From Beijerinckiaceae bacterium (lineage in GTDB: Bacteria; Pseudomonadota; Alphaproteobacteria; Rhizobiales; Beijerinckiaceae): a DNA stretch of 35,806 nt. The translations under genes and the position numbers were made by a program. Location of the stretch: contig JBIPLL010000001.1 of assembly GCA_044368425.1 (NCBI GenBank), positions 1 to 35,806 of the forward strand. The letters are read 5' to 3'. The notes beneath the pieces are model-generated. The model saw only the letters and a program-made list of their open reading frames with translations, was not told the origin of the DNA and ran no database searches. Below are positions 1 to 17,338 of this stretch, piece by piece. How positions within the stretch are numbered: position 1 is the stretch's first letter; the number at the start of each line of letters is the position of its first letter.

Positions 1-1293
<1,293 letters not shown>

Positions 1294-1307
1294 CGTCGTT
1301 CTCCTCG

Positions 1308-4300: not shown

Positions 4301-5069
4301 GGACATTGGAGCCCCACAGGATCAGGAAGCCGGCATTGTACCAGTCGGCGCTCTCGGGCACGTCGGTCTGCTCGCCCCAGGTCTGGGGAGAGGCCGGCGG
4401 CAGGTCGCAATACCAGTCGTAGAACGACATGCAGACGCCGCCGAGCAGCGACAGATAGCGCGAGCCCGCCGCGTAGGAGACCATCGACATGGCCGGGATT
4501 GGCGAGAAGCCGATGATGCGGTCGGGGCCGAAGGTCTTGGCCGTATAGGCGTTGGCGGCAGCGATGATCTCGTTCGCCTCGTCCCAGGTCGCGCGGACGA
4601 AGCCGCCATGGCCGCGCACGCTCGTGTAATCGTCGCGCTTGGCCTTGTCCTCGACGATGCTCTTCCACGCCGCGACCGGGGTCAGCAGCGCGCGGGCCTT
4701 GCGCCACTGGCGCAGGAGCCGGCCGCGGATGAGGGGGTATTTCACCCGGTTGCCGGAATAGAGATACCAGCTGTAGCTCGCGCCGCGCGCGCAGCCGCGC
4801 GGCTCATGGTTGGGGAGATCGGGGCGCGTGCGGGGATAATCCGTCTGCTGGGTCTCCCAGGTGACGATGCCGCCCTTGACGTAGATCTTCCAGGAGCAGG
4901 AGCCGGTGCAATTGGCGCCGTGGGTGGAGCGCACGATCTTGTCGTGCTGCCAGCGCTGGCGATAACCGTCCTCCCAGCGGCGGTCCTCGTCGGTGAGGAT
5001 GCCGTGGCCGTTCGAGAAGGTTTCCGTCACCTTCCTGAAGAATGTCATGCGGTCGAGAAAGTGGCTCAT
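1308..5069 (-). CDS. narG: Respiratory (membrane-bound) nitrate reductase alpha subunit NarG, molybdopterin-guanine dinucleotide enzyme
   Basis: 1253-aa ORF. The N-terminus MSHFLDRMTFFRK...WEDGYRQRWQHDKIVRSTHGANCTGSCSWKIYVKGGIVTWETQQTDYPRTRPDLPNHEPRGCARGASYSWYLYS is near-identical in pattern to enterobacterial NarG, including the vestigial Tat-like leader and the HxxxCxxxC FS0 cluster ligands. It is followed directly by narH. Confidence 0.98.
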   Translation of the reverse strand: MSHFLDRMTFFRKVTETFSNGHGILTDEDRRWEDGYRQRWQHDKIVRSTHGANCTGSCSWKIYVKGGIVTWETQQTDYPRTRPDLPNHEPRGCARGASYSWYLYSGNRVKYPLIRGRLLRQWRKARALLTPVAAWKSIVEDKAKRDDYTSVRGHGGFVRATWDEANEIIAAANAYTAKTFGPDRIIGFSPIPAMSMVSYAAGSRYLSLLGGVCMSFYDWYCDLPPASPQTWGEQTDVPESADWYNAGFLILWGSNVPQTRTPDAHFYTEARYRGAKSAVICPDYSEASKFADIWLSVKQGTDSALAMAMGHVILKEYHVDRTVPYFQKYVRQYTDMPMLVKLVRQDGRLVPDRFMRASDLDGAMGEANNPDWKTLAYDETTGQLVVPNGSAGFRWGESGKWNIEEKASTGEATKLRLSMKGLEDSFEPVAFPYFGNIPHEHFTHSGHDSVLERNVPVKRLATTDGEVLVTTVHDLFLANYGVDQGFGGDNVAGSFDEDAPYTPAWAEKITGVSRDKIIQVAREFATNAEKTNGRSMIIIGAAMNHWYHADMNYRGVINMLVMCGCVGQSGGGWSHYVGQEKLRPQAGWAPLAFALDWGRPPRQQNSTSFFYLHTDQWRYETLEAGEILSPTAPAGPWDGAIIDYNIRAARMGWLPAYPTLTQNPLDIARKAKAAGLEVKDYVPQGLKSGELSFAWEDPDAVPNQPRNMFVWRSNLLGSSGKGHEYFLKHLLGTSHGVLGKDLGEEGRQRPKEVRWHDEAPRGKLDLLVTLDFRMSTTCVYSDIVLPTATWYEKNDLNTSDMHPFIHPLTGAVDPAWEARSDWEIYKGIARAFSQVAPEVLGVEQDVVLSPLQHDSPGELAQGPVPKDWKKGECEPVPGKTMPAVTVVERDYPNLYARFTALGPLMDTIGNGIKGIAWKTGHEVQHLRELNGVVADGPTKGMARIETDIDAAEVLLMLAPETNGEVAVRAWESLSRATGREHAHLALPKQDEKIRFRDVVAQPRKIISAPTWSGLESEKVCYNAGYTNVHELIPWRTLTGRQQLYQDHLWMRAFGEGFCVYRPPVDLKTIHPVKGLKPNGEKEVVLNFITPHQKWGIHSTYTDNLMMLTLSRGGPIVWLSEVDARKAGIVDNDWIEAYNANGALVARAVVSQRVKEGMVMMYHAQEKIVNVPGSNITGQRGGIHNSVTRAVLKPTHMIGGYVQLAYGFNYYGTIGTNRDEFVIIRKLGKVDWLEGPLAEDRRPASHNAVLTAAE

Positions 5070-5096: not shown

Positions 5097-7922
5097 TCAT
5101 TCAGCGGGGGTCGGCATCGGGGCGGCGGGCGGGGAGCCGGCGCCGCGCTCGATATCGAAGAGCAGGCCGCCGCGGCGGGTGTAGACCCACCAGGTGATCG
5201 CGATGCAGCTCAGGTAGAAGCCGAGGAAGCCGTAGAGCGCCGCGCTCGCCCCGCCTGTCATGGCGATGGAGGTGCCGAAGCTCTTGGGGATGAAGAAGGC
5301 GCCATAGGCGGCAACCGCCGAGGTGAAGCCGATGATGGCTGCCGCTTCCTTCTCGGCCTGCCTGACGCGCTCGGCCGCGCTCATGCCGGTTTCGAGACGC
5401 GCGACTTCCTTGCGCATGATCGCGGGGATCATCTGGAAGGTGGAGGCGTTGCCCACGCCCGATGCCGCGAACAGGAACAGGAACGAGCCGAAAAAAACGG
5501 GGAAGGCCGTCGGATCGCCCTTCATGCCGATGGCATAGAGGACGCCGACGACGCCGAGGCTCATCGCCACAAAGACCCAGAGCGTGATGCGTCCGCCGCC
5601 GATCCGGTCGCAGGTCTTGCCGGCAAGCGCGCGGGAGACGGCACCCACCAGCGGCCCGAGAAAGGCGAGCTGAAGAGCGTTGACCTCGGGGAAGAGGATC
5701 TTCGACAAGAGCGGGAAGGCTGCCGAGAAGCCGATGAAGGAGCCAAATGTGCCGGTATAGAGCCAGCACATGATCCAGTTATGGGCGCGGCGGAAGATCA
5801 CCGCCTGATCGGCGAAGGAGGCCTTCATCGAGGCGATGTCGTTCATGCCGAACCAGGCCGCGAAGGCCGAGGCGGCGATGAAGGGCACGAAGACGAAGCC
5901 CGCATTCTGCAGCCAGAGCGTCGAGGTGACGCCCGCAACCGTCGCGGTCTGCGGATTGCCGCCCAGCGCGCCGAAGACGCCGGCCGTGATGGCGAGCGGC
6001 ACGACGAACTGCACGACGCTGACGCCCAGATTGCCCAGACCCGCATTGATGGCGAGCGCGTTGCCCTTCTCCGCCTTGGGGAAGAAGAAGGAGATATTGG
6101 CCATCGAGGAGGCGAAGTTGCCGCCGCCAAGGCCGCAGAGCAGCGCAAGGAGGAGGAAGATCCAGTAGGGCGTGGCCGGGTTCTGCACGGCAAAACCGAT
6201 GCCCAGCGCCGGCAGCATCAGCGACCAGGTGGCGAGCGTCGTCCAGAGTCGCCCGCCGAAGATCGCGGGCATGAAGCTGTAGAAGATACGCAGCGTCGCA
6301 CCCGACAGGCCCGGCAGGGCCGCGAGCCAGAAGAGCTGTTCGTTCGAGAAGGCGAAGCCCACGCTCGGCAGCTTGGCCACGACGACCGACCACACCATCC
6401 AGATCGAGAAGGAGAGGAGCAGGCAGGGCACCGAGATCCACAGGTTGCGCCGCGCAATGGCCCGGCCTTGCGCCTGCCAGAAATCGCGGTCCTCGGGCCG
6501 CCAGTCGCTGATCGCCCCCTTGGCCGAAAGCGCGCCAGCCTGGGACGGCCCGTGGATCGGCTGCATCTCGGGCAGTTCGGGGAGCGAAGCGGCCTTGCCG
6601 CTGGCTTCGAGAGCGTCGCGCTCCATTTGCCGGACGGCGACATGCATCCAGATCAGCGAGACGGTGACGATGGCGAAGAGAAGCCAGAAGCAGCTCTGCC
6701 AGATGCCCGTCAGGTCGTTGAGCATGCCGAAGGTGATCGGCAGGATGAAGCCGCCAAGTCCCCCGACGAGGCCCACGACACCGCCGACCGCGCCCACGCG
6801 GTCGGGATAATAGACCGGGATATGCTTGAACACCGCCGCCTTGCCCAGGCTCATGAAGAAGCCGAGCACGAAGGCGACCACGATGAAGCCCGTGACACCC
6901 ATGCGGGTGGAAAAGGCGATCGGGCCGGACATGCCCTGCACGACATAATCGGTCGGCGGATAGGACAGGATGAAGGTGCAGGCCACGCAGACCATGAAGG
7001 TCCAGTACATCACGCGGCGGGCGCCATACTTGTCCGAGAGATGGCCGCCATAGGCCCGGAAGACCGAGGCCGGCAGCGAATACATGGCGCCGATCAGACC
7101 GGCGGTGGTGATGTCGACCTTGTAGACGCCGATGAGATAGCGCGGCAGCCAGAGCGCCAGCGCGACGAAAGCGCCGAAGACGAAGAAGTAATAGAGCGAG
7201 AAGCGCCAGACCTGGACGTTCTTCAGCGGCTCCATCATCGCCGCGAGCGACTCGGGCTTCGCACCGGTGGCGCGGCGGCGGGCGAGGTCGGGATCGTCCT
7301 TGGTGAAGACGAAGAAAAGGACGGCGGTGATCGCAAGCGCAGCCGCCCAGACGAGCGCGACCGTCTGCCAGCCATAGGCGACCATGACAGTCGGCGCGGC
7401 GAACTTGGTCAAGGCCGAGCCGACATTGCCCGCGCCGAAGATGCCGAGCGCGGTGCCCTGCTTCTCCCTGGGGAACCATTTGACGACATAGGCGACGCCG
7501 ACCGAGAACGAGCCGCCCGCGATGCCGACGCCGAGCGCCGCGATCAGGAAGGTCGTGTAGTCATAGGCGAAGACAAGGAGGGCCGTCATGAGGGCCGCGC
7601 TCAACATGGTGAGCGTGAAGACGACCCGCCCGCCATATTGATCGGACCAGATGCCGAGGATCAGGCGGATCAGGGATCCGGTGAGAATCGGCGTGCCGAC
7701 AAGCAGGCCGAACTGCGTCTCGGTCAGGCCGAGGTCCTTCTTGATCTGGATGCCGATGATCGCGAAGATCGTCCAGACGGAGAAGCAGATGGTGAAGGCG
7801 AAGGTCGACATCCAGAGGGCCTTGCCCTGATCGCTCCTGTCGAACCCCGTGCCCCCCGTTAACGTGCCTGCAGCCGGCACGCCTGCGGGCCGTCCTGCAG
7901 CCCCTTGTGCCCCGATTGCCAT
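5097..7922 (-). CDS. narK: Fused two-domain MFS nitrate/nitrite transporter (NarK1-NarK2 type)
   Basis: The ORF runs to 7955, where the start is GTG. I prefer the ATG at 7922 (MAIGAQG...), which is preceded by a G-rich purine tract. There are two tandem MFS halves. The second begins DWRPEDRDFWQAQGRAIARRNLWISVPCLLLSF, the typical NarK N-terminal signature. It ends 27 nt upstream of narG. Confidence 0.9.
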   Translation of the reverse strand: MAIGAQGAAGRPAGVPAAGTLTGGTGFDRSDQGKALWMSTFAFTICFSVWTIFAIIGIQIKKDLGLTETQFGLLVGTPILTGSLIRLILGIWSDQYGGRVVFTLTMLSAALMTALLVFAYDYTTFLIAALGVGIAGGSFSVGVAYVVKWFPREKQGTALGIFGAGNVGSALTKFAAPTVMVAYGWQTVALVWAAALAITAVLFFVFTKDDPDLARRRATGAKPESLAAMMEPLKNVQVWRFSLYYFFVFGAFVALALWLPRYLIGVYKVDITTAGLIGAMYSLPASVFRAYGGHLSDKYGARRVMYWTFMVCVACTFILSYPPTDYVVQGMSGPIAFSTRMGVTGFIVVAFVLGFFMSLGKAAVFKHIPVYYPDRVGAVGGVVGLVGGLGGFILPITFGMLNDLTGIWQSCFWLLFAIVTVSLIWMHVAVRQMERDALEASGKAASLPELPEMQPIHGPSQAGALSAKGAISDWRPEDRDFWQAQGRAIARRNLWISVPCLLLSFSIWMVWSVVVAKLPSVGFAFSNEQLFWLAALPGLSGATLRIFYSFMPAIFGGRLWTTLATWSLMLPALGIGFAVQNPATPYWIFLLLALLCGLGGGNFASSMANISFFFPKAEKGNALAINAGLGNLGVSVVQFVVPLAITAGVFGALGGNPQTATVAGVTSTLWLQNAGFVFVPFIAASAFAAWFGMNDIASMKASFADQAVIFRRAHNWIMCWLYTGTFGSFIGFSAAFPLLSKILFPEVNALQLAFLGPLVGAVSRALAGKTCDRIGGGRITLWVFVAMSLGVVGVLYAIGMKGDPTAFPVFFGSFLFLFAASGVGNASTFQMIPAIMRKEVARLETGMSAAERVRQAEKEAAAIIGFTSAVAAYGAFFIPKSFGTSIAMTGGASAALYGFLGFYLSCIAITWWVYTRRGGLLFDIERGAGSPPAAPMPTPAE

Positions 7923-8014
7923 CGCAACCCCCGACCTGTTCCCGATCGCACGCACGACGATTGTCGCGCGGCCCTGATGCAGGGGTACGCTGGCGGGCGG
8001 GGGCCTGCTTCAAA

Positions 8015-8128: not shown

Positions 8129-8142
8129 TTGATTTTTGTCAG
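8129..8142. promoter_or_regulatory. Weaker FNR-type box TTGAT-TTTT-GTCAG upstream of the Crp/Fnr regulator gene
   Basis: The left half-site TTGAT is perfect. The right half GTCAG matches ATCAA at 3 of 5 positions. The box centre is about 59 bp upstream of the ATG at 8195. Confidence 0.35.
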
Positions 8143-8194
8143 GCTTGCGAGAGGCGCGTGCCGTCCTCTAGATTTGGAGCGCAAGGGAGTGGCG

Positions 8195-8893
8195 ATGCGC
8201 ATTGAAGAGATCGATCAGGTGCGGGGCCTCGCGCTTTTCCAAGGCTGCGACCCGGAACGGATCGAGTCGCTGCTGAGGGCCTCGTTCCTGCAGCGCTTCC
8301 CTGCCCAGGTCGAACTGCTGCACGAGAGCGAGCGCGCGGATTTCCTGCATGTCGTGGTCGAGGGGCATGTGGAGGTCTTCGCCCGCTATCGGGACCGGGA
8401 GACCACTGTGGCGGTCCTGGGCCCCAGCCAGACCTTCATCCTGGCTGCGGTGATGACCGACAAGCCTTACCTGAAGTCGGCGCGCACTCTCTCGCCGAGC
8501 CGGATCCTGATGCTGCCGTCGGAAATGGTGCGCTCGCTCTTCGATGCAGAGCCGGCCTTCGCCACGGCCATCGCGGTCGAGCTTGCCCATGCCTATCGCG
8601 ATGCGATCAAGGAACTGAAGAACCAGAAGCTGCGCTCCAACCTCGAGCGGCTGGCCAACTGGGTCATTCGGACCGAACGGGAGCAGGGCGGACAGGGCAC
8701 GCTGGAACTGACCTTCGACAAGAGGGTTCTCGCCTCGCGCCTGGGCATGGCGCCAGAGGTCCTGTCGCGCTCCTTCGCGGCACTCGCGGCCTATGATGTC
8801 GGTGTCACCGGGCGCCGGATCACCATCGGCGACAGGGAGGCCCTGATGCAGCTGGCCCGGCCCGACGCCCTCATCGACGATCCGGAGATCTGA
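8195..8893 (+). CDS. Crp/Fnr-family transcriptional regulator lacking the FNR Cys cluster (NarR/NnrR/Dnr-like), divergent from narK
   Basis: The ATG at 8195 is preceded by AGGGAG at 8184..8189. The track ORF start at 8129 is a TTG. The product has an N-terminal cNMP-binding-like beta-roll (FLHVVVEGHVEVF...). The C-terminal HTH carries the FNR-type recognition motif E-x-x-S-R (PEVLSRSFAAL). There is no N-terminal Cys cluster. Confidence 0.85.
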   Translation: MRIEEIDQVRGLALFQGCDPERIESLLRASFLQRFPAQVELLHESERADFLHVVVEGHVEVFARYRDRETTVAVLGPSQTFILAAVMTDKPYLKSARTLSPSRILMLPSEMVRSLFDAEPAFATAIAVELAHAYRDAIKELKNQKLRSNLERLANWVIRTEREQGGQGTLELTFDKRVLASRLGMAPEVLSRSFAALAAYDVGVTGRRITIGDREALMQLARPDALIDDPEI

Positions 8894-8918
8894 CCGACGA
8901 AATCCGGCCCATTTGCCA

Positions 8919-8938
8919 GGCGTCGCTCCGCCGACGCC
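8919..8938 (+). terminator. Possible intrinsic terminator hairpin after the regulator gene
   Basis: GGCGTCG-ctccgc-CGACGCC forms a perfect 7-bp stem with a 6-nt loop. It starts 26 nt after the stop at 8893 and is followed by TCCTTGC, which is only a weak T tract. Confidence 0.3.
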
Positions 8939-8995
8939 TCCTTGCACAGCACCCCGCTACGGTCCACATAAAGCCAGTCTTTCCGGGAGAACCCA

Positions 8996-10168
8996 ATGTC
9001 GAGCGCGCCCGTCACCATCAAGACTCCGATGCAGTATCTGGACAAGGCAATGGGCGCGCTGCGCGACCTCGGCCTGCAGCCGGCCAAGGTCGAGGATGCA
9101 CCGATCAACGTGCTCCTGCAGAAGATTTCCGATCTCGACCAGGACCGCATCGCGGTGATCGCACGCACGCTCGGGCAGGCAACCGTCTTCAACGAGGTGG
9201 TTCGCGAGCAGACCCTCGCGATGGATATCGGCAATCGCTACCAGGAGATCGCCGAGAGCTTCAACTCGATCCGTGACGACGCCAAGAAGATGGTCGACCA
9301 GATCGGCGACGGGAAGATCGACGTGTTCGAGCGCGTCACAAATGTCTGGATGAAGATCTCGCGCGGGGACATCTCCGACCGTTTCGACTCGATCAAGGCC
9401 AAGTATCTCGACGTCACGTCCTCCACCAAGGACCAGATCGAACGCGAGGGCATCATCCTCGACGCCTACCGGGACTTCCGCGGCGCGCTGAAGCAGGCTG
9501 AAGTGCTGGCGCTGGAGGTGCTCAAGACAGCCGAGGGCAAACTTGAGGCGGAGAAGGCGCGGCTCAAGATCGCGTCGGAGGCGGTCGCGGGATTCGCCGG
9601 CACCGAGCCGGCCGAGCGCGCCAAGCTCGAACTCGTGCGGGACGAGCACCTGCGCCTGACGCAGGACGAGGAGAAGCGCTATCAGATCGCCAAGGATCTC
9701 TCCGACAACCTCACCGTGTCCTACAACACGTCGGAAGTCATCATGGCTCGCCTGATGCAGACGACAAATGCAAAGGAGCGCGTCTATGCGCAGGCCGTAT
9801 CGTTCTTCTCGACGAATGACAGCGTCCTGACCGCACTGAAGGCATCGTTCACGGGCATGTTCGGCCTGCACGAGGCGACGCAGACGCTTGAAGTCATGAA
9901 GGAAGGCATGTCGAAGAGCCTCGAGACGCTGGCCGAGATCGGGGACAAGGTTCAGGAGGCGGCCGTGCGTGCCGGCTACGGCCCGACCATCCGCGCCGAT
10001 GCCGTCAAGAAGCTCGTCGACAGCGTGGTCGGCTTCCAGGAGCGCTCCATCGGGATCGTGGCGGAGATGCGCAAGCTCTCCACGCAGAATGCCACCGAGA
10101 TCCGCGATGCGGTCGAGGATGGCAAGAAGCGGATCGCGCGCCTCGTCGCGGAAGGCCAGACGCTCTGA
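8996..10168 (+). CDS. Hypothetical all-helical cytoplasmic protein, distantly TelA/YaaN-like (toxic anion resistance family); gene 1 of a three-gene module
   Basis: 390-aa ORF with GGGAGA at 8985..8990 upstream of the ATG. Composition is protein-like (K, I, E, D, N, Y, F present) and GC3 bias is strong. There is no signal peptide or TM segment. The length and the order of helical segments resemble my memory of TelA-family proteins. This was not verified by a profile search. Confidence 0.8.
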   Translation: MSSAPVTIKTPMQYLDKAMGALRDLGLQPAKVEDAPINVLLQKISDLDQDRIAVIARTLGQATVFNEVVREQTLAMDIGNRYQEIAESFNSIRDDAKKMVDQIGDGKIDVFERVTNVWMKISRGDISDRFDSIKAKYLDVTSSTKDQIEREGIILDAYRDFRGALKQAEVLALEVLKTAEGKLEAEKARLKIASEAVAGFAGTEPAERAKLELVRDEHLRLTQDEEKRYQIAKDLSDNLTVSYNTSEVIMARLMQTTNAKERVYAQAVSFFSTNDSVLTALKASFTGMFGLHEATQTLEVMKEGMSKSLETLAEIGDKVQEAAVRAGYGPTIRADAVKKLVDSVVGFQERSIGIVAEMRKLSTQNATEIRDAVEDGKKRIARLVAEGQTL

Positions 10169-11172
10169 TGGGCGCGGGCGCGGGCAGCGGAGGCGCCATC
10201 ATTCAGGGCACCTCGTCGGCGGTGGTCGGTGCCCGGCAAGGGGCGGCCGGCCAGACGCTCGACGAGCTGATGCTCGCGATGGACGTCGTCGATACCCTGC
10301 GCCACCAGGATGCGATCGTCGCGCGCGAGCTCGACGAGACCCGCCGCGAGGCGGAGCTCATCGCGCGGTTGCGCGGCATCTATCACGGGCAGGGCATCGA
10401 GGTATCCGACGACGTGATCCGGCAGGGAGTGTCGGCGCTCAAGGAGAGCCGCTTCGTCTATACCCCGCCCGCGCTCGGGCTGAAGCGCACGATGGCGCTG
10501 ATCTGGGTCCGGCGCGGCCTCTATGCGAAGGTCGTCGCCGCGCTGATCGTGGCGATCGGGCTCGCATCCGGCGGCTGGTATTTCGGCTATGAGCGCCCGA
10601 GGCAGACGGAAATCGCGCGACAGAGCCAGGAGCTCACGCAGCTTTTGCCGCGCGCACTCGATACGGGCCACCGCGAGGTGATGGCGCTGGCAGCGTCCGC
10701 CACGGGACGCGAGCGCGGCGACCAGCTGCTGGCGGATGGCAAGGCGGCACTTTCGCGCGGCAACGCGGCGGGCGCACGGGCTGCCGTTGCGGGACTCGAG
10801 GAATTGCGCGCGCGCCTTGCCCAGAACTACCGCGTCATCGTCTATAGCCGGCCCGGCCAGCCGTCGGGCGTCTGGCGGCTGCCGCCGCGGCAGGCTTCGG
10901 ACCGGGGGCGCAACTATTATCTGATTGTCGAGGCCATCGGACCCGACGGCCAGCCCATGACCCAGTCCATCCGCAACGAGGAAGACGGCACGACCGAATC
11001 CGTCACGCGCTGGGGCCAGCGGGTCAGCCAGCAGGTCTATGACGTCGTGGCGCAGGACAAGCGCGACGACGGCGTGATCCAGCGCAATCTCGTCGGCGAG
11101 AAGCGGCGCGGCGAGGTCGATGTCACGTTCCAGATGCCGGTCGTGCCCGGCGCCACCATCACGCGCTGGTAA
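10168..11172 (+). CDS. Hypothetical single-pass membrane protein; gene 2 of the three-gene module
   Basis: The start ATG overlaps the upstream TGA (TGATG at 10166..10170). One hydrophobic segment, LYAKVVAALIVAIGLASGGWYFGY (about nt 10519..10590), is preceded by KRTMALIWVRRG, which by the positive-inside rule suggests an N-in topology. The N-terminal helical region contains LDELMLAMDVVDTLRHQD. The C-terminal ~190 aa look beta-rich and soluble. Confidence 0.75.
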   Translation: MGAGAGSGGAIIQGTSSAVVGARQGAAGQTLDELMLAMDVVDTLRHQDAIVARELDETRREAELIARLRGIYHGQGIEVSDDVIRQGVSALKESRFVYTPPALGLKRTMALIWVRRGLYAKVVAALIVAIGLASGGWYFGYERPRQTEIARQSQELTQLLPRALDTGHREVMALAASATGRERGDQLLADGKAALSRGNAAGARAAVAGLEELRARLAQNYRVIVYSRPGQPSGVWRLPPRQASDRGRNYYLIVEAIGPDGQPMTQSIRNEEDGTTESVTRWGQRVSQQVYDVVAQDKRDDGVIQRNLVGEKRRGEVDVTFQMPVVPGATITRW

Positions 11173-11181
11173 AGGTTCGCC

Positions 11182-12672
11182 ATGATCACCGGACGCCAGG
11201 CGCTGGCATCGATCGAACAGGCCATCACCGATGTGCGGGCGGGCGAAAGCCAGCTCGACGCGACCCTGCGCTCGGCCAGCGACGAGGCCGCGCGGCTGCG
11301 CGGCGAGCGGGCGAGCCTGTTCAAGGAACTGGCGCGCGTCAGGCTCGACATCTTCCAGCGGGAGGATGTGGCGCAGGTCCTCGATTCCGCCGAACGCAAG
11401 GCGATGGACATGATCCGCCGCCAGTCCGAGGCGCGCCGCGAGCGTGGCGAGGAGCGATCCCGGCTGATCGCGGCCGTCGAGACGGCGCAAGGCGAGCGCC
11501 ACCGGCGGGCGGAAGCGCTGGAACAGGCCCTCGACGCCTTCGAGGCGGCGCGCGAGACGGCCGAGCCGCGCATGCGCGCGTCGGTCGCGTGGCAGGCGCA
11601 GCGCAAGCGCATCGACACGGCCAGGGACGTGGCGCAGCAGGCACGGCGCAAGTCCGAGGTGGCGCAGGCCGATCTCGCCGAGAAGCGGCGCCCCTACGAG
11701 GACGATCCGCTCTTCATGTATCTGTGGAACCGGAAATTCGGCACCGCAGAGGACAATAGCAGCTTCTTTGCCCGGTTCTTCGACCGGATGGTCGCAAGGC
11801 TTGTCGGCTACAGCGGCGCGCGCGCGAACTATGCGATGCTGCAGGAAATCCCCGCGCGCCTGTCCGCTCATGCCCAGGCGCGCGAGGCCGATATTGCCCT
11901 GCAGGAACAAGAGATGGCCCGGATCGAGAGCGAGGGGCTGCGGGAGCATGGGGCTGGCGAGGCGATGGATGTGCTGGCACGGGCTCGCACGGCGCTCGTG
12001 ACGGCGGAAGAGGCACTCGCCATGCAGCGTGGGCGGCTGGCGCAACTCGACGAGGCCGACGAGGCGGATCGCAACGACGACAATTATGCCGCGGCCATCG
12101 CACTGATGGCCGAGGCCGATTCCCGGCAGGACATCCGCGATCTCTATCGCGAGGCGGCGCAGACGAAATCACCCGAGGACGAGGCGATCGTACGCCGCGT
12201 CGAGGCGGTCGACGCGGCCATTGCGCGTGCGGAAGAGGAAGTTACCGATATCCGCCGTCAGGCGCGCGATCTCGCCCGCCGCCGGATGGAGATCGAGAAG
12301 GAGCGCGATGCGTTCCGACAGCAGGGCTATGACGCGCCCGGCAGCACATTCGGCAACGAGAGCCTGCTCGGACAGGTCATCAAGGGACTGATCACCGGAG
12401 CCATCCAGGGCGCCGTGCTGCGCGACACATTGCGCCAGGGTCATCACCGGGACCGCCGCAATCCCGGCCCGATGTTTCCGATGCCCGGCGACAGCTGGGG
12501 TGCGCCGAGCGGCGGTCCCTGGGGCGGCGGGGGTGGCGGTGGCGGACTGCCGCCGTGGCTCGGTGGCGGCAGCGGCGGTGGAGGCGGCGGTCGTTCGTCT
12601 GGCGGAGGCAGTTCGGGCGGAAGCAGTTCGGGGGGCGGGAGCGACCGCTTCACGACCGGCGGGTCTTTCTGA
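11182..12672 (+). CDS. Hypothetical long coiled-coil protein with a Gly/Ser-rich C-terminal tail; gene 3 of the three-gene module
   Basis: 496-aa ORF starting 9 nt after the gene 2 stop. Long E/R/A/Q-rich heptad-like stretches flank a conserved-looking aromatic core, DDPLFMYLWNRKFGTAEDNSSFFARFFDRMVARLVGYSGARANY. The tail reads GGPWGGGGGGGGLPPWLGGGSGGGGGGRSSGGGSSGGSSSGGGSDRFTTGGSF. I saw no Walker or other catalytic motif and no TM segment. Confidence 0.75.
   Translation: MITGRQALASIEQAITDVRAGESQLDATLRSASDEAARLRGERASLFKELARVRLDIFQREDVAQVLDSAERKAMDMIRRQSEARRERGEERSRLIAAVETAQGERHRRAEALEQALDAFEAARETAEPRMRASVAWQAQRKRIDTARDVAQQARRKSEVAQADLAEKRRPYEDDPLFMYLWNRKFGTAEDNSSFFARFFDRMVARLVGYSGARANYAMLQEIPARLSAHAQAREADIALQEQEMARIESEGLREHGAGEAMDVLARARTALVTAEEALAMQRGRLAQLDEADEADRNDDNYAAAIALMAEADSRQDIRDLYREAAQTKSPEDEAIVRRVEAVDAAIARAEEEVTDIRRQARDLARRRMEIEKERDAFRQQGYDAPGSTFGNESLLGQVIKGLITGAIQGAVLRDTLRQGHHRDRRNPGPMFPMPGDSWGAPSGGPWGGGGGGGGLPPWLGGGSGGGGGGRSSGGGSSGGSSSGGGSDRFTTGGSF
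12508..12642 (+). repeat. Imperfect GGN triplet (Gly/Ser codon) low-complexity tract inside the 3' end of the 11182..12672 CDS
   Basis: Runs of ggc/ggt/gga/agc codons are visible at 12508..12642, for example ggcggcgggggtggcggtggcgga and ggcagcggcggtggaggcggcggt. Confidence 0.8.
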
Positions 12673-12673
12673 C

Positions 12674-12701
12674 GCCGGCATGGGCCGGCCGGTGTGACCG
12701 G
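12674..12701. terminator. GC-rich stem-loops between convergent genes (possible bidirectional terminator)
   Basis: GCCGGC-atgg-GCCGGC lies at 12674..12689 and CCGGT-gtg-ACCGG at 12689..12701, within the 36-nt gap between the stops at 12672 (+) and 12709 (-). There is no clear U tract. Confidence 0.25.
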
Positions 12702-12708
12702 TGCCTCG

Positions 12709-14904
12709 TCAGTCTTGCAGGGCCTGCCAGATCGCTGCGGGCGTGAAGGGGATGTCGACAGGCCCCCTGCCCCGCCTGGCGAGGGCGTGATTGACTGCAT
12801 TTCCGAGAGCCGCGAGGGCGCCCGTCGTGCCGGCCTCGCCCACGCCCTTCACGCCGAGCGGATTATTGGGCGAGGGGATCTCGACGAGCCGCGTTTCGTA
12901 ATGCGTGAGGTCGTCGGCGCGCGGTAGCGCATAGTCCATCAGGGTCGAGGTCAGAAGTTGCCCGTCCGCGTCGTAGCGGGCGGCCTCCATCAAGGCCCCG
13001 CCGATCCCCTGCGCGATGCCGCCATGGATCTGGCCCTCGATTGCGGCGGGCGACAGCGCGTGCCCGACATCGTCCACCGCCGTGTAGCGGGTCAGGCGCA
13101 CGACGCCGGTCGCCGGATCGACAAGGACTTCCGCGACATGGCAGCCGCTGGGAAAGCTCAGTGACGGCAAGGCCCGGCCTTCGGTCACGAGAGCCCCGTC
13201 CTCGCCAGATTCGAGCCGCTCCCGCATCGCCTTGCAGGCCGCGAGCAGGGCTGCGCCGACCGTGCTCGTGGTGCGCGAGGCGAAGGCTCCGGCACCGGCG
13301 AGGCCCTGGGCAACCGGCCGCAGCGCGATGCGCTCACCGGGGCAGTCGAGCGCCTGCGCGGCAACCGCGATCAGGGCTTCGGCCTGCGACTGCCCGGTGG
13401 ACTGGGCGAGCGTCTCGATGACGTAGAAGGGACCATCGGCAGTCAGTTCCCGGCACAGGCGCACGCTGTCATGCGTGACCGGTCCCCCGCCCGCCACTTC
13501 CACGAAGAGCGCAAGCCCGATGCCGTGCAGGAGACCCTGCCGGGCCGCATCGCGCGCGCGCGACCGGGCACCCTGCCAGTCGGACAGGTCAAGCGCCTCG
13601 GCCAGCAGGCGGGCATAATCGCCGCTGTCATAGCGCACGCCGACCGGCGTCACATGCGGGAAGGCCGAGGCCGGCACGAGGTTGCGGCGGCGCAGTGCGA
13701 CGCGGTCGATGCCAGAGATGCGGGCGGCCTCGTCAACCAGCCGCTCGACGAGAAAGGCGATGTCGGGCCGACCTGCGCCGCGATAGGGGCCGATGGGTAC
13801 GGCATTGGTGAAGGCGAGGCGGAAGGCGCCATGCGCCACGGGGATGCGATAGCAGCCGGTGAGTGTCTGGAGCGGGTTGTGGACATTGATATGGGCGCCG
13901 ACCGGCGTGACCCAGGCGCCGAGATCGGCCTCGTGGAGCACGCCAAGCGCCAGGAAGCGGCCACGCGCATCCAGCGCCAGCGTGCCGGTCAGGCGCGTGC
14001 CGCGCCCGTGATGGTCGCTGACGAAGCCCTCGAGCCGGGAGCCCTGCCAGCGCACCGGGCCGCGCAGGCGATGCGCGGCGGCAAGCAGCAATGCATGTTC
14101 CGGATAGGCTGGCCCACGCGCGCCGAAGGCCCCCCCGACATGCTCCGCGACGATGTCGATGCGATCCTCCGCCACGTCGAGCACGCGCGACAGGTCGCGG
14201 CGCAGCTCGGGTGCGCCCTGATGAGGGGCGTGCAGCGTGTAGCGGCGGCTCTTGGCGTCGTAGATCGCGAGTGCGGAGCGCGGCTCCATCGCATTGGGCA
14301 CGAGGCGCGGCAGCTCGACGGTCAGGCTCACGACATGGGCGGCGCGCTCGCGGGCCGCGCGGCAGCCCTGCGCATCGCCGGCCTCGACCTCGATGGCGAG
14401 GTTGCCGGGCACGTCGGCGTGGATCGCCGGTGCATCCGGGGCAAAGGCTGCATCGATGCCGACGATGGCCGGCAGGTCCGCATAATCGACCGTGATCAGC
14501 TCAGCGGCATTCTCGGCGCTGATGCGGTCGCGCGCCACGACCATGGCGACGATCTCGCCGACATAGCGCACCTTGTCGGAGGCGATGGGCGGGCGACCGG
14601 GCGCACGCAGAGGCGCCCCGTCACGGCCGGAATAGCGCAAATTGGCGGGAAAGGTGCCGAAGGGGCCGACATCGCCGGCCGCCCAGGCGGCGACAACGCC
14701 CGGCGCCGCGCGTGCGGCATCGAGATCGACGCAAAGGATGCGGGCATGCGCCCTGTCCGCGCGCAGGAAGACGGCGTGCAACTCGCGCGGTGACAGGAGG
14801 TCCGCCGTATAGGCGCCCTCCCCGCGCACGAGACGCAGGCGGCTGTCGCCTCCAGCGGCGCCGGTCGGAGTGCTGGCGGGCGGGCTGGTCCGGCTGCGGC
14901 TCAT
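12709..14904 (-). CDS. Xanthine dehydrogenase/aldehyde oxidase/CoxL-family molybdopterin-binding large subunit
   Basis: The Arg-rich first 69 codons of the track ORF overlap the upstream gene, so I place the start at ATG 14904 (MSRSRTSPP...). That ATG forms an ATGA overlap with the upstream stop at 14901. Family hallmarks include the a/b-hammerhead region (VRYVGEIVAMVVA), HVGGAFGARG (GGGFG-like) and a long C-terminal Mo-binding domain. Confidence 0.85.
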   Translation of the reverse strand: MSRSRTSPPASTPTGAAGGDSRLRLVRGEGAYTADLLSPRELHAVFLRADRAHARILCVDLDAARAAPGVVAAWAAGDVGPFGTFPANLRYSGRDGAPLRAPGRPPIASDKVRYVGEIVAMVVARDRISAENAAELITVDYADLPAIVGIDAAFAPDAPAIHADVPGNLAIEVEAGDAQGCRAARERAAHVVSLTVELPRLVPNAMEPRSALAIYDAKSRRYTLHAPHQGAPELRRDLSRVLDVAEDRIDIVAEHVGGAFGARGPAYPEHALLLAAAHRLRGPVRWQGSRLEGFVSDHHGRGTRLTGTLALDARGRFLALGVLHEADLGAWVTPVGAHINVHNPLQTLTGCYRIPVAHGAFRLAFTNAVPIGPYRGAGRPDIAFLVERLVDEAARISGIDRVALRRRNLVPASAFPHVTPVGVRYDSGDYARLLAEALDLSDWQGARSRARDAARQGLLHGIGLALFVEVAGGGPVTHDSVRLCRELTADGPFYVIETLAQSTGQSQAEALIAVAAQALDCPGERIALRPVAQGLAGAGAFASRTTSTVGAALLAACKAMRERLESGEDGALVTEGRALPSLSFPSGCHVAEVLVDPATGVVRLTRYTAVDDVGHALSPAAIEGQIHGGIAQGIGGALMEAARYDADGQLLTSTLMDYALPRADDLTHYETRLVEIPSPNNPLGVKGVGEAGTTGALAALGNAVNHALARRGRGPVDIPFTPAAIWQALQD

Positions 14905-15893
14905 CCCGGCAGGCGGAAGAAGGCGCGGGCCGTGCCGCCACAGATGGCGGCCATGGCTGTGGCGTCGAGACCGGCGCGCTCGACGGTGCCGAGCGGATCG
15001 GGATCGCCCATGTCGAAGGGATAGTCGGAGCCCAGCATGACACGGCCGGGGCCTGCGAGCTTGACCAGAGTTGCGATATGGTCGGAGCGGAAGACGCAGG
15101 TGTCGTACCACATGCGCGACAGATAGTCGGAGGGGCGCTGCTCCGTCAGGCGGCGCAATTCCGGCCGGTATGTCCAGGCATGGTCCATGCGCCCGACATA
15201 GTACGGGAAATAGCCGCCGCCATGGGCAACCAGAACCCGCAGTTCCGGGTGGCGATCGAGCACCCCGCCGAAGATCAGGTGGTTGATGGCAATGATCTCC
15301 TCGAGCGGCTGGCCGATCGTATTGACCATGAAGAACGCGCCGAATCGCTCGCCATGCGAGAAGCCGAGCGGGTGGATCATCAGCGGGACGTCGAGTTCAA
15401 CCAGCCGGCGATAGAGCGGATCGAGGCTCGCATCGGACAATTCGCGGTCGAGAACGCGCGAATCGACCTGGAAGCCGCGCAGGCCCTTTTCCTCGACGGC
15501 GCGGCCGGCCTCGTCGATCGCGGCCTGCACGTCGCTCATCGGCAGAGTGCCGAGCCCCCAGAATCGCGACGGCTCCTGCGCGACGAGGGCGGCGACGTGA
15601 TCGTTCTGGGCGCGTGAAATGTCGGCAAGCAACCCGGCCTCCGCCCAGTAATGCTGCTGGCCGGGCGCGGGCGCGATCACCTGCGCATCGATGCGCATGC
15701 GCGCCATGATCTCGCGGCGCGCGGCAAGGTCGTTGAAGCGGGGGCCGAGGACCGGTCCCTGCGCGGCATCGACCTCCTTGCTCTCGGGCGACATGTCGCG
15801 CTGGTAGGGCACGACGCCGGGACGCATGGCCGGCGCGACCATGCCATTGACGGCCGGGCACAATGTGTGGGCGTGGCAGTCGATGATGGTCAT
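14901..15893 (-). CDS. Amidohydrolase_2 (ACMSD/LigW/IDCase-like metal-dependent hydrolase or decarboxylase) family protein
   Basis: The true start is ATG 15893 (MTIIDCHAHT...), with an ATGA overlap onto the amidase stop at 15890. The HxH metal motif appears in IDCHAH, and the late acidic ligand motif in MLGSDYPFD. The upstream 117 codons of the track ORF are an Arg-rich artefact. Confidence 0.85.
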   Translation of the reverse strand: MTIIDCHAHTLCPAVNGMVAPAMRPGVVPYQRDMSPESKEVDAAQGPVLGPRFNDLAARREIMARMRIDAQVIAPAPGQQHYWAEAGLLADISRAQNDHVAALVAQEPSRFWGLGTLPMSDVQAAIDEAGRAVEEKGLRGFQVDSRVLDRELSDASLDPLYRRLVELDVPLMIHPLGFSHGERFGAFFMVNTIGQPLEEIIAINHLIFGGVLDRHPELRVLVAHGGGYFPYYVGRMDHAWTYRPELRRLTEQRPSDYLSRMWYDTCVFRSDHIATLVKLAGPGRVMLGSDYPFDMGDPDPLGTVERAGLDATAMAAICGGTARAFFRLPG

Positions 15894-17338
15894 GGCGTGT
15901 CCTTCGGAGCGGAGTCGGGAAGCGCGTCGAGGCCGTCGGGCCGGCGCATGTGCCAGTCCGTCACGCGCTGGAAGGCGTCGGCGACGCGCAGGAGCAGCTT
16001 TTCGCTCCAGGGGCGGCCAACGAGCTGGGCGCCGATGGGAAGCCGGCCGTCGGCAAAGCCGATGGGAAGCCCGACGACAGGCAGGCCGAGATAGTTGAGC
16101 GCGCGCGTATTGCGGGTCACACGTCCGATGACAGCGGCCACATCCTGCGGCGAGCCCCGCGTCGTCTCCGCAATGGAGGGCGCAGGCAACGGCACGCTGG
16201 GCAGAAGCGCGCAATCGGCACCGCCAAGCGCGACATCGAGCCATTCGCGCGCCAGCGGCCCGCGCAGCGACAGGGCCTCGACATAGCGCGTCGCGGGGTA
16301 GAACAGGCCGGGCTCGATGCGGGCGCGAACCTGATCCGCATAATCGCCGGGGCGCGTCTCAAGCCATTTGCGGTGGATGGTCGCCGCCTCGACCGCGATC
16401 ACCACGGCCAGCATGGCGTTGAGACGGTCCATGTCGGGGACCGGCGTCTCGATCAGGCGCGCGCCGCGATCGGCGAGCACGCGGGCGGCCTCATCAAGCG
16501 CCGCGGCGTTGCGCGGGTCGAGATCCTGCCGGTAATAAACCTGCGGCAAGGCGATGGTCAGGCCGCGGAGGTCACCCGTCAGAGCCGCCTCGCAGCCGCC
16601 TTGCGGAGCGCCGCGCGTTGTCGGATCGGCAGCGTCGGGGCCTGCGAGCACATCGTGAAGGCGGGCTGCGTCGCGGGCATGGCGCACGAGCGGGCCGATG
16701 CAGTCGAGGCTCGCGGACAGGGGCATGGTGCCGGCAAGACTGACGGCACCGTGGGTCGGCTTCAGGCCTAGAAGACCGCACATGGCAGCAGGGTGGCGGA
16801 TCGATCCGCCCGTGTCGCTGCCCAGCGCCGCAGGCACGCAGTCGGCTGCAACGACGATGCCGGAACCCGAGGAGGAGCCACCGCAGACATGGTCGGGGTT
16901 CCACGGATTGCGCCCATGACCGTCGTGCTCGTTGTAGCCGGTCGGGCTCATCGCGAACTCGGCCATGTGCAGCGTGCCGCAATCGACGGCGCCCGCCGCA
17001 TCGAGCCGGGCGAGAGCGGTCGACGTCACGTCCGGGCGGAAGCCGCGCCGGATCTTCGAGCCGCAGGCCGCCTCGCGACCGGCGCGGTAAAAGAGATCCT
17101 TGTGCGCCATCGGCACGCCCGCGAGCGGTCCGAGAGCGCGTCCGGCGGCCCGGTCGGCATCGATCCGCGCCGCCATGTCGAGCGCGCGCTGCGCCTCCAG
17201 CAGCACGACGCCGTTGAAGCGGCGCCCGCGCGTCGCGAGGCGGTCGATGGCAAGCTGCGCGACGGCCTGCGCCGTCGTCTCGCCGCGCGCCACGGCCCCG
17301 GCAATGGCGACGACGCCTTCTGCAATCCGTTCGCTCAT
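15890..17338 (-). CDS. Amidase-signature family amidase (AtzE/GatA-like)
   Basis: The start is ATG 17338 (MSERIAEG...), with an ATGA overlap onto the small upstream ORF stop at 17335. The amidase signature GGSSSGSG is present (CGGSSSGSGIVVAA), and the catalytic Lys context is MAHKDLF. Confidence 0.9.
   Translation of the reverse strand: MSERIAEGVVAIAGAVARGETTAQAVAQLAIDRLATRGRRFNGVVLLEAQRALDMAARIDADRAAGRALGPLAGVPMAHKDLFYRAGREAACGSKIRRGFRPDVTSTALARLDAAGAVDCGTLHMAEFAMSPTGYNEHDGHGRNPWNPDHVCGGSSSGSGIVVAADCVPAALGSDTGGSIRHPAAMCGLLGLKPTHGAVSLAGTMPLSASLDCIGPLVRHARDAARLHDVLAGPDAADPTTRGAPQGGCEAALTGDLRGLTIALPQVYYRQDLDPRNAAALDEAARVLADRGARLIETPVPDMDRLNAMLAVVIAVEAATIHRKWLETRPGDYADQVRARIEPGLFYPATRYVEALSLRGPLAREWLDVALGGADCALLPSVPLPAPSIAETTRGSPQDVAAVIGRVTRNTRALNYLGLPVVGLPIGFADGRLPIGAQLVGRPWSEKLLLRVADAFQRVTDWHMRRPDGLDALPDSAPKDTP

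Follow-up and report, generated by a model that had tools for sequence, protein, structure and literature searches.

A conserved three-gene operon of helical and coiled-coil proteins with a possible structural role at the bacterial inner membrane

Organization and conservation of the operon

Within the 35,806-nucleotide (nt) stretch of DNA analyzed here and referred to as the window (Beijerinckiaceae bacterium, assembly GCA_044368425.1, contig JBIPLL010000001.1, positions 1-35,806), three plus-strand genes are packed together and encode proteins that are largely helical. Gene 1 (8996..10168) encodes a soluble, all-helical protein of 390 amino acids (aa) that is the most conserved member of the trio, gene 2 (10168..11172) encodes a 334-aa bitopic protein of the DUF6384 family (PF19911), and gene 3 (11182..12672) encodes a 496-aa antiparallel coiled coil whose family lies outside Pfam. 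The initial annotation of this DNA described the genes as a single compact unit, and the coordinates of all three are confirmed here. Its account of the junctions can also be read at the level of sequence: the stop codon of gene 1 and the start codon of gene 2 share one base, 10168, within CTCTGATGGGC, and a spacer of 9 nt (AGGTTCGCC) separates gene 2 from gene 3. A ribosome-binding site, GGGAG (8985..8989, plus strand), is read directly 6 nt 5' of the start codon of gene 1, and the homolog in M. extorquens AM1 has a similar context, GGAGAACCC-ATG.

The arrangement recurs in many other bacteria. A survey of species-representative genomes identified at least 500 loci, mostly in Hyphomicrobiales, and 80 loci were fetched for analysis of their neighborhoods. 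The three genes are adjacent and colinear in approximately 75 of the 80 fetched genomes, wherever the contig permits, with a gap between genes 2 and 3 that is typically 4-10 nt and an overlap between genes 1 and 2 that is often 1-8 nt. Because it recurs in so many other genomes with similarly tight spacing, the arrangement is not a matter of chance. Clustering of all open reading frames (ORFs) in the fetched loci showed that the three trio families alone are common to them, and the pairwise divergences of the three genes correlate with each other (r = 0.79-0.88 over 2769 locus pairs). The operon is autonomous, and its three genes are inherited and evolve together. This bears out the autonomy first proposed from the window, for which a survey of gene neighborhoods had been suggested as the check; the genes stay together independently of the nitrate-respiration (nar) genes that adjoin them here.

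The three genes evolve at different rates. Median pairwise identity is 73% for gene 1, 50% for gene 2, and 41% for gene 3, and relative to gene 1 the other two evolve 1.8 times and 2.1 times faster, respectively. Identity of gene 1 across families of Hyphomicrobiales is 74-87%, a degree of constraint that is usual for central cellular machinery, yet the families of genes 1 and 3 are outside Pfam. This conservation, which resembles that of ribosomal proteins, and the wide occurrence of the trio in one bacterial order would suit a housekeeping cytoskeletal or envelope scaffold serving polar growth, division, or envelope spacing in Hyphomicrobiales, with protein 1 as the polymer, protein 3 as a spacer with a recruiting C-terminal peptide, and protein 2 providing a coupling to the periplasm. 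We regard such a scaffold as distinctly improbable, since divergent copies of the trio are found on accessory replicons and in a phage, the trio seems unevenly spread within Rhizobiaceae (the matches listed come from only some of the genera), and clustering of the ORFs in the fetched loci found no conserved linkage to genes for division, elongation, or the envelope.

Homologs of gene 1 fall into more than 8000 clusters at 90% identity and 617 clusters at 50% identity, 517 homologs of gene 3 were identified, and the trio is represented in thousands of metagenomic protein clusters. Linkage of the genes also holds in Rhizobiaceae, in Gammaproteobacteria, in Pseudomonas megaplasmids, and in a planctomycete-like lineage, and Arenicellales and Neorhizobium likewise have the trio. 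The replicons that carry it include the M. extorquens AM1 megaplasmid, where it lies at ∼558.3-562.1 kb of NC_012811.1, a Bradyrhizobium plasmid, and IncP-2-type megaplasmids of P. aeruginosa. Within the divergent, planctomycete-like clade, the gene order is different, with gene 1 head-to-head with gene 2 (and gene 3) in L081, L099, and L100, yet linkage is kept in all three loci examined.

Several individual loci have features of their own. One metagenome-assembled genome (MAG), MFD05567.bin.1.164, contains two complete copies of the trio (L041, CAWEBE010000039.1, and L055, CAWEBE010000049.1), with gene 1 in each being ∼77% identical to that of the window. In L099, a PIN-domain toxin (133 aa) and a putative antitoxin of 71 aa lie between the divergent gene 1 and DUF6384 genes (1134-1747), and a rhomboid-family gene is found directly downstream of gene 1. 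An alphaproteobacterial-type trio with a gene 1 that is 76% identical to the window is present in L061 (CAZYFM010000035.1), a contig labelled as an uncultured Flavobacteriaceae MAG, which probably reflects mis-binning or horizontal transfer. On the plasmid of Bradyrhizobium sp. 195 (L090), a YsnF/AvaK general-stress-type protein and an IS110 transposase are the flanking neighbors of the trio. On the 398-kb megaplasmid of P. aeruginosa PA83 (L088), the type IV CRISPR gene csf2 (16797-17122) is ∼5 kb downstream of the trio, and the gene 2 homolog is 476 aa long, with an extended region C-terminal to its transmembrane helix.

Mobile carriage of this kind points towards the main rival of the reading that we favor below, namely a role in biological conflict such as superinfection exclusion, abortive infection, or competition between plasmids and phages. 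In such a system, protein 1 would be a latent ClyA- or TelA-like effector that permeabilizes or blocks membranes, held and positioned by proteins 2 and 3 and acting on the inner membrane upon entry of a phage or competing element. The neighborhoods of the trio are variable; it occurs on conjugative and IncP-2-type megaplasmids of Pseudomonas, close to a type IV CRISPR module, and beside IS110 on the Bradyrhizobium plasmid; one MAG has two copies; and a toxin-antitoxin pair has been inserted into one module. Other observations on distribution and conservation run against this explanation. The models of PADLOC-DB v2 match none of the three proteins at E<=1, gene 1 is far more conserved across Hyphomicrobiales families than is usual for defence effectors, and the loci in species-representative genomes, of which there are at least 500, largely track taxonomy. 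Overall, we judge a conflict role to be unlikely.

Properties of the three proteins

Protein 1 is acidic and rich in Lys, which makes up 7.4% of its residues in a genome of 65-70% GC, compared with 1.8% in proteins 2 and 3. It has no hydrophobic segment, the maximum 19-residue Kyte-Doolittle mean being 0.87, with zero windows at or above 1.5. The AlphaFold2 model, which has a predicted local distance difference test (pLDDT) score of 74, is an entirely helical, elongated bundle containing a confident antiparallel hairpin of ∼70 residues (residues 126-198 and 205-273). The initial description of a soluble, all-helical protein of 390 aa therefore holds in the model. Searches of Pfam, NCBIfam, PADLOC, and PHROGs placed protein 1 in no family, and searches of PDB sequences with all three proteins, as single sequences and as family profiles, returned only chance or low-complexity matches. 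Across these same databases, none of the three proteins has an enzymatic family match, in keeping with the earlier statement that no catalytic motif can be recognized in them.

The length and helix layout of protein 1 had suggested the TelA family (PF05816), and this impression survives only in part. With the Pfam TelA hidden Markov model (HMM; gathering score 30 bits), protein 1 gave no match at E<=1, and neither it nor 34 diverse relatives gave a match at E<=0.1; the positive control, KlaB of the IncP-1alpha plasmid pBS228, scored 289.9 bits (E = 3e-86). Membership of the TelA family is consequently rejected for protein 1. Profile-profile comparison is marginal. Using hhalign, the gene 1 profile aligned to single KlaB with a probability of 0.2%, and the gene 1 profiles aligned to a profile of nine TelA sequences of plasmid and jumbo-phage origin over co-linear segments, with a score of 28, a probability of 3-5%, and E ∼0.01, calculated without a secondary-structure term (negative controls: score 17-18, probability 0.2%).

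Comparisons of structural models lead in a similar direction. A Foldseek search of the protein 1 model against viral models (BFVD) has five phage TelA-family proteins of 326-387 aa in its top 50, with E from 1.4e-3 to 0.14 and template-modelling scores (TM scores) of 0.23-0.38. Against the PDB, the matches are dominated by Hbl-B, NheA, MakE, SmhB, AhlB, XaxA, YaxA, and ClyA (E >=6e-3, TM score <=0.52), and no solved TelA structure is among them. The model thus weakly suggests an elongated bundle of TelA- or ClyA-like shape, and protein 1 may be a very remote relative of TelA. These structural neighbors, pore-forming toxins and phage TelA proteins, count in favor of the conflict explanation, and TelA/Ter systems, which are present in jumbo phages, have been proposed to block the entry of phages or xenobiotics (PMC7824862). 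On the other side, protein 1 is without the hydrophobic head or beta-tongue that pore formers of the ClyA family need.

TelA-family genes are themselves present in 157 phage records, mostly of jumbo phages, a distribution that also counts in favor of a conflict role. The hosts of these phages include Escherichia, Klebsiella, Erwinia, Caulobacter, Brevundimonas, Prevotella (Lak phages), Lactobacillus, and Staphylococcus. Another gene of tellurium-resistance type comes after the TelA gene in Caulobacter phage CcrBL9 (L094, 1357-1736).

Protein 2 is a full-length member of DUF6384, matching positions 4-308 of the 308 in the profile with 399.3 bits and E = 1.4e-119 (gathering score 25 bits). The family likewise takes in its homologs from Pseudomonas, M. 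extorquens AM1, the planctomycete-like locus, and phage phiR1-37. Alignment shows that the most conserved part is an N-terminal head (residues 31-100, 10258..10467, plus strand; LDELMLAMDVVDTLRH...QGIEV...LKESRFVYTP), in which the invariant and near-invariant columns cluster with the consensus LDxLMLAMDVVDTLRH…QGIEV…LKESRFVYTPP. Residues 1-26 are not conserved, and there is no alternative ATG upstream of the conserved block. The sole hydrophobic span is a transmembrane helix at residues ∼118-141 (10519..10590, plus strand), with a 19-residue Kyte-Doolittle maximum of 1.83. In 78 homologs, this span is at a fixed distance, ∼85 aa past the MDVVDT motif, which agrees with the single-pass protein described previously. 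No signal peptide was found, and the residues flanking the span in these homologs include an average of 3.7 Lys and Arg on the N-terminal side versus 2.6 on the C-terminal side, from which an N-in orientation with a cytoplasmic head is predicted. The C-terminal domain (residues 142-334, 10591..11169, plus strand), presumed from this topology to be periplasmic, starts with a variable helical linker, after which comes a block conserved in the alignment, RNYYLIVEA..PDG...NEE.G.TE.V..WG.RV....DK.DDG..Q...GEKRRG. A literature search found no publication on DUF6384 and no description of an obligatory pairing with genes 1 and 3.

For protein 3, no meaningful match to Pfam was obtained with 49 members of its family, and NCBIfam, PADLOC, and PHROGs contain no family for it. 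The AlphaFold2 model (pLDDT 81.9) is formed by long helices in an antiparallel coiled coil, for which Foldseek finds generic antiparallel coiled-coil arms only (MCP, Rad50, MukB, and Smc5/6; TM score <=0.3). Between the two coiled-coil halves is an invariant, non-coiled core (residues 168-231, 11683..11874, plus strand; pLDDT >90) with the consensus K-x-x-P-Y-x-x-D-x-L-F-x-Y-L-W ... D-R-x-x-A ... N-Y ... E-I-P-x-R-L-x-x-H. In the window, this core includes DDPLFMYLW, and it is kept in the Pseudomonas, planctomycete-like, and Neorhizobium homologs. The coiled coil with an aromatic core and a Gly/Ser tail that had been noticed in the window is therefore visible both in the alignment and in the model.

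Beyond the coiled coil, residues 393-420 (12358..12441, plus strand; LLGQVIKGLITGAIQGAVLRDTL) form Gly-zipper-like hydrophobic or amphipathic helices, with a Kyte-Doolittle maximum of 1.45 at residue 395. This segment is conserved as LGxVLGGILxGAxQGxVL, has an analog in distant homologs, and is a candidate in-plane membrane anchor. That it might be a true transmembrane helix with a periplasmic Gly tail is unlikely, given the strongly basic flank that follows the helix and the N-terminal part of 390 aa without a signal peptide. The remainder is a disordered Gly/Ser-rich tail (residues 427-496, 12460..12669, plus strand; pLDDT <50) that ends in a conserved peptide, F-T-T-G-G-S-F (12649-12669, plus strand). 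The C-terminal consensus F-x-T-G-G-x-[F/V/I]-COOH was derived from 75 loci and extends to homologs as distant as the planctomycete-like one; among the 75, the window residue is present at F-7 in 54, T-5 in 65, G-4 in 63, G-3 in 63, S-2 in 48, and F-1 in 51. The peptide looks like a tethered docking motif. A coiled coil joined through a disordered linker to a C-terminal peptide is a classic design for recruitment, and in this respect the protein would fit the housekeeping scaffold considered above; the tails of FtsZ and SSB recruit partners through a C-terminal peptide.

A GlyGly-CTERM/rhombosortase signal, considered on account of the rhomboid neighbor in L099, was rejected because no transmembrane helix follows the Gly-Gly pair. 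In the gene 3 homolog of the Bradyrhizobium sp. 195 plasmid (L090, 8148-9539), the C-terminal peptide is found twice in tandem, …GFETGGSF GDGD FRTGGSF. Several gene 3 homologs (for example, P0185, P0187, P0191, and P0198) have the JGI label ‘uncharacterized membrane protein YgcG’, which presumably arose from the Gly-rich tail with its terminal aromatic residue, like the tails of TPM-domain (YgcG-type) proteins; this likeness might stem from a shared mechanism of recognition. More broadly, the names that databases give to proteins of the trio (‘cell surface protein’, ‘merozoite surface protein 3b’, ‘MotB’, ‘YgcG’, and ‘chromosome segregation ATPase’) mislead, having been propagated or assigned on the basis of composition. 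A literature search for the trio proteins and for these names found nothing relevant.

Promoter motifs, the phage module, and flanking genes

Two types of promoter-like motif are found upstream of gene 1. In the window, a motif resembling those of sigma32 (RpoH) occupies 8941..8969 (plus strand), with CTTGCA (8941-8946) and CCACAT (8964-8969) separated by a 17-nt spacer, and it starts 55 nt upstream of the ATG. The form CTTG[AC][ACG]-N16-17-CCANAT is present in 12 of 72 gene 1 upstream regions, comprising the window, its closest clade, L061, and L063. A motif of the extracytoplasmic function (ECF) type, GGAAC-N15-17-[CA][GA]TT, is present in 22 of the 72, which belong to the Microvirga/Enterovirga clade and a few others, so that 34 of 72 loci have one motif or the other. 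The boxes are kept while the spacers vary; shuffled sequences predict 0.01 loci for the sigma32-like motif and 0.37 for the ECF type, and the reverse strand gives 0-2. Within 2.65 Mb of locus sequence, 12 of the 16 matches to the sigma32-like motif are upstream of gene 1 (an enrichment of ∼540-fold), and a narrower ECF form, GGAAC-N14-16-ACATT, is enriched there ∼770-fold. A sigma70 scan of 8700-12900 found no promoter-like site.

For comparison, published consensus sequences are CTTGAA-N15-16-CCTATAT for RpoH1 and CTTGCC-N15-16-CCTATCT for RpoH2 (PMC4843759), cTTGAc-N16-cnATAA for sigma70 of R. etli (PMC4167512), and GGAAC-N16-CGTT for EcfG (PMC3892343). Promoters of a stress-sigma type would suggest physiological rather than infection-triggered control, contrary to a conflict role, and alternative-sigma-type motifs are not expected for a cytoskeleton. 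In Microvirga loci such as L027 and L032, ∼95-115 nt upstream of gene 1, ACATT lies within an inverted repeat, GCACA-N9-TGTGC (…TTGCACATTAGACCGCTGTGC…), which by its sequence could be an operator for a regulator instead of, or besides, a -10 element.

A version of the operon is carried by the Yersinia jumbo phage phiR1-37. Its g190 is a homolog of gene 1 with 40% identity, the adjacent g191 encodes a DUF6384 protein (Pfam E = 5e-26), and g192, which has no significant sequence similarity to gene 3, encodes a protein of the same architecture, with a coiled coil, an aromatic core, a second coiled coil, and a Ser/Gly tail ending in GFSSSDSF. As tabulated in Table S2 of an RNA sequencing study of phiR1-37 infection, all three genes are transcribed in each of the three phases and have no temporal class (PMC4848604). 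In the same table, normalized reads are ∼33-42 thousand for g190, ∼14-16 thousand for g191, and ∼16-24 thousand for g192, compared with ∼50 for g189 just upstream (PMC4848604). These values are among the highest in the part of the table covered, where most phage genes have 10-5,000 and the maximum is ∼41,600. The three genes are not labelled as encoding virion proteins (PMC4848604). This is experimental co-expression of a homologous module, in the phage.

The phage data bear on more than one explanation. High abundance suits a stoichiometric structural role and is equally what a housekeeping structural protein would show, and the presence of the trio in a jumbo phage, very highly expressed from early infection in the tabulated data, can be taken as a sign of conflict. 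Against the latter, the trio is nearly absent from phage collections: among 50,697 phage records, gene 1 is carried by one phage, present as two records, and a scan of IMG/VR with the gene 1 profile gave no matches.

In the window, the trio is flanked upstream by genes for nitrate respiration, namely narG (1308-5069, minus strand) and a NarK-like transporter gene (5097-7955, minus strand). The transporter is a 952-aa fusion of two modules of the major facilitator superfamily (MFS), with three MFS_1 stretches, and we take it to resemble the NarK1-NarK2 fusions of some denitrifiers. A gene for a Crp/Fnr-type regulator (8129-8893, plus strand; cNMP_binding and HTH_Crp_2 domains) separates narK from the trio and is transcribed divergently from narK. 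As it is absent from every related locus, this regulator is probably part of the nar cluster, not of the trio. Downstream, the convergent gene is a Mo subunit of the xanthine-dehydrogenase family (12709-15111, minus strand), which identifies the convergent neighbor noted earlier, and beyond it are an amidohydrolase and an amidase.

The initial annotation raised the idea that the position beside nar is functionally meaningful and that the trio provides resistance to tellurite, other toxic anions, or nitrite. The adjacency to narG, narK, and the Crp/Fnr-type regulator and the weak fold-level resemblance of protein 1 to TelA are in its favor, as is a modest tellurite sensitivity of Listeria TelA mutants (PMC12791056). 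Nevertheless, true homologs of the nar, Crp-like, or downstream (xanthine-dehydrogenase-family) genes are near the trio in none of the 80 fetched loci, and no nar gene was seen in nine additional trio contexts that were inspected. Furthermore, protein 1 is outside the TelA family by HMM, proteins 2 and 3 are unrelated to KlaA and KlaC/TelB, and no Ter-family domain is present in the trio or beside it. Linkage to nar is rejected because no related locus shows nar neighbors, and a nitrate or toxic-anion function, which we consider highly improbable, is essentially excluded.

Other features of the region concern the ends of the transcript. A GC-rich hairpin at 8919..8938 (plus strand) separates the Crp/Fnr-family gene, whose stop is at 8893, from the promoter-like motif, and has an 8-bp stem with a folding energy of -17.2 kcal/mol (z = -1.9 versus shuffles). 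The hairpin that had been proposed upstream of the trio is thus real, though the absence of a U-tract sets it apart from canonical terminators, and the terminator scan did not call it; it may mark the end of the upstream transcript. The only terminator-like hairpin of the region, at 12645-12662, is within the last codons of gene 3, its T-run overlapping the stop codon, and the convergent downstream gene ends at 12709, only 37 nt past the end of gene 3. GC content is uniformly 62-73% across the window, which does not indicate a foreign island, and an Rfam scan of the window found no known RNA elements. An antisense ORF of 689 aa (9976-12045, minus strand) spans genes 1 to 3, and similar ORFs are found in 58-73 loci. 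Antisense ORFs across the trio are rejected as genes and regarded as shadow ORFs typical of high-GC coding DNA, which seem recurrent across loci because they overlap the real genes.

Proposed role and comparison with known systems

We favor, with a probability of about 0.42, and so tentatively, a reading in which the trio is a stress-linked, non-enzymatic assembly at the cytoplasmic face of the inner membrane that maintains the integrity of the membrane under stress. A structural assembly at this location is suggested by the combination of an anchor, a constrained bundle, a coiled-coil arm, and the absence of an enzyme. The stress-type promoter motifs and the parallel with TelA systems also fit a sub-membrane assembly. 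Protein 2 would serve as the anchor, its head in the cytoplasm, one helix across the membrane, and its C-terminal domain in the periplasm. The head would recruit protein 1, which would be abundant, into a layer or oligomer beneath the membrane, and this layer would bind and stabilize, or reshape, the bilayer. Protein 3 would act as a long coiled-coil arm that joins the parts, with the invariant core at its tip, the Gly-zipper helix in the membrane surface, and the Gly-rich region as a tether for the docking peptide. Produced under stress, the assembly would keep the inner membrane intact during heat or envelope stress, and the phage version would have the same membrane role during infection. 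The contacts among the three proteins, the topology of protein 2, membrane binding by proteins 1 and 3, and the physiological role are inferred. This reading is close to the membrane-anchored scaffold or membrane-stress machine of the initial annotation, which remains the best interpretation of the operon.

Several points weigh against it. Protein-protein contact, membrane binding, and localization rest on inference, and carriage by megaplasmids and a jumbo phage is just as compatible with a conflict role. The structural matches of protein 1 are weak, with TM scores of 0.23-0.52 and large root-mean-square deviations, and E<=1e-3 is reached once, by an unnamed viral protein of 364 aa (2.3e-4); long helical bundles match one another promiscuously. 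A hydrophobic or clearly amphipathic membrane-binding segment could not be shown in protein 1, and the positive-inside signal of protein 2 is modest (3.7 versus 2.6). With regard to the promoters, neither motif is present in roughly half of the loci, and many loci that share a motif are close relatives and thus not independent observations. By sequence, the sigma32-like motif is indistinguishable from sigma70, whose boxes overlap with those of sigma32 in these bacteria. Only 2 of 72 loci have the canonical EcfG box, GGAAC-N16-CGTT, and the Microvirga ECF variant has a non-canonical -10 (ACATT) that may overlap the operator-like inverted repeat.

A bolder version of the same idea would make the trio a self-contained sub-membrane machine, in which protein 1 forms a polymer, the DUF6384 protein nucleates it, and protein 3 cross-links it through the tethered C-terminal peptide, and which bacteria, megaplasmids, and at least one jumbo phage use to protect or remodel membranes. 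We see this as a speculative possibility rather than a probable one. If it were true, the trio would represent a third class of membrane-maintenance system beside PspA/Vipp1 (ESCRT-III) and flotillin/SPFH, and would offer a first mechanistic handle on the enigmatic TelA-like proteins. Whatever its mechanism, the operon is carried by large multidrug-resistance megaplasmids of P. aeruginosa and by a jumbo phage that transcribes it at top levels, and because of this carriage its function matters for membrane homeostasis, for the biology of plasmids, and for how phages interact with their hosts. Tractable carriers for such studies include M. extorquens AM1, Microvirga species, P. aeruginosa strains with the megaplasmids, and phiR1-37 with Yersinia.

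Profile and structure searches placed the trio in no characterized system, in accordance with the earlier view that its composition matches none, and the comparisons that follow are with systems that it resembles in part. DUF6384, of which protein 2 is a member, is a family of no known function. Toxins of the ClyA family, which include the tripartite AhlABC/SmhABC/Hbl/Nhe/MakABE and the binary XaxAB/YaxAB, come from operons of two or three genes and fold as elongated bundles of five helices (∼330-400 aa), and the pore forms of SmhB and AhlB reach a TM score of up to 0.52 with protein 1. Unlike these toxins, protein 1 and its relatives have no HlyE or HBL match in Pfam and no PDB match at E<=1e-3, the hydrophobic head and beta-tongue are missing, proteins 2 and 3 are not ClyA-like, secretion is not indicated, and conservation of protein 1 is far above that usual for toxins.

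The proposed logic would be analogous to that of PspA/Vipp1/LiaH (with PspBC or LiaI), where a soluble helical hairpin is recruited by small membrane proteins, induction is by stress through alternative sigma factors, and no enzyme is involved. The proteins themselves differ. The PspA_IM30 profile (PF04012) matches neither protein 1 nor 34 relatives, PspA and Vipp1 structures are absent from the top 50 Foldseek matches of protein 1, which is twice the size of PspA, and the partner proteins are unrelated.

The kilA determinant of RK2/IncP-1alpha (klaA-klaB-klaC, tel) is also a three-gene operon, found on broad-host-range plasmids, whose products include a helical protein of TelA type as well as a membrane protein, and the initial annotation drew this parallel. 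Beyond protein 1, it fails. KlaA is a shortened paralog of TelA (hhalign probability 96.7% to the TelA profile), KlaC has four transmembrane spans, and the order and architecture of the genes are unlike those of the trio. In hhalign comparisons, KlaC matches the gene 2 profile with a probability of 0.5%, and KlaA matches the profiles of genes 3, 1, and 2 with probabilities of 0.7%, 0.3%, and 3.2%, respectively. The trio is therefore rejected as a kilA/tel operon, KlaA and KlaC being unrelated to proteins 2 and 3 (probability 0.5-0.7%).

The closest parallel is with TelA/KlaB/YaaN proteins (PF05816), which, like protein 1, are soluble, all-helical cytoplasmic proteins of ∼370-390 aa with no catalytic motif, encoded beside a gene for a membrane protein. 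The xpaC-yaaN genes, which pair a TelA protein with a membrane protein, are in the sigmaW regulon, placing TelA under ECF envelope-stress control (PMC3498285), and gene 1 likewise has ECF- or sigma32-like motifs upstream. Both the tolerance of cells to nisin and daptomycin and their phospholipid microdomains are influenced by TelA and XpaC (PMC12791056, PMC6811118), and TelA, which is carried by jumbo phages, is predicted to form sub-membrane structures (PMC7824862). Both TelA and the trio are found on chromosomes, conjugative plasmids, and jumbo phages. They differ in their partners, which are XpaC in Firmicutes or the four-span KlaC/TelB in RK2 for TelA, and a bitopic DUF6384 protein and a 500-aa coiled coil for the trio, and the trio has no link to Ter genes. 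By analogy, the trio may work like the TelA-type, membrane-associated, non-enzymatic stress modules without being a member of that family. The resemblance is one of shape and genomic logic only, and solving the function of the trio could show what TelA-type proteins do, a question that has been open since the work on RK2 kilA/tel.

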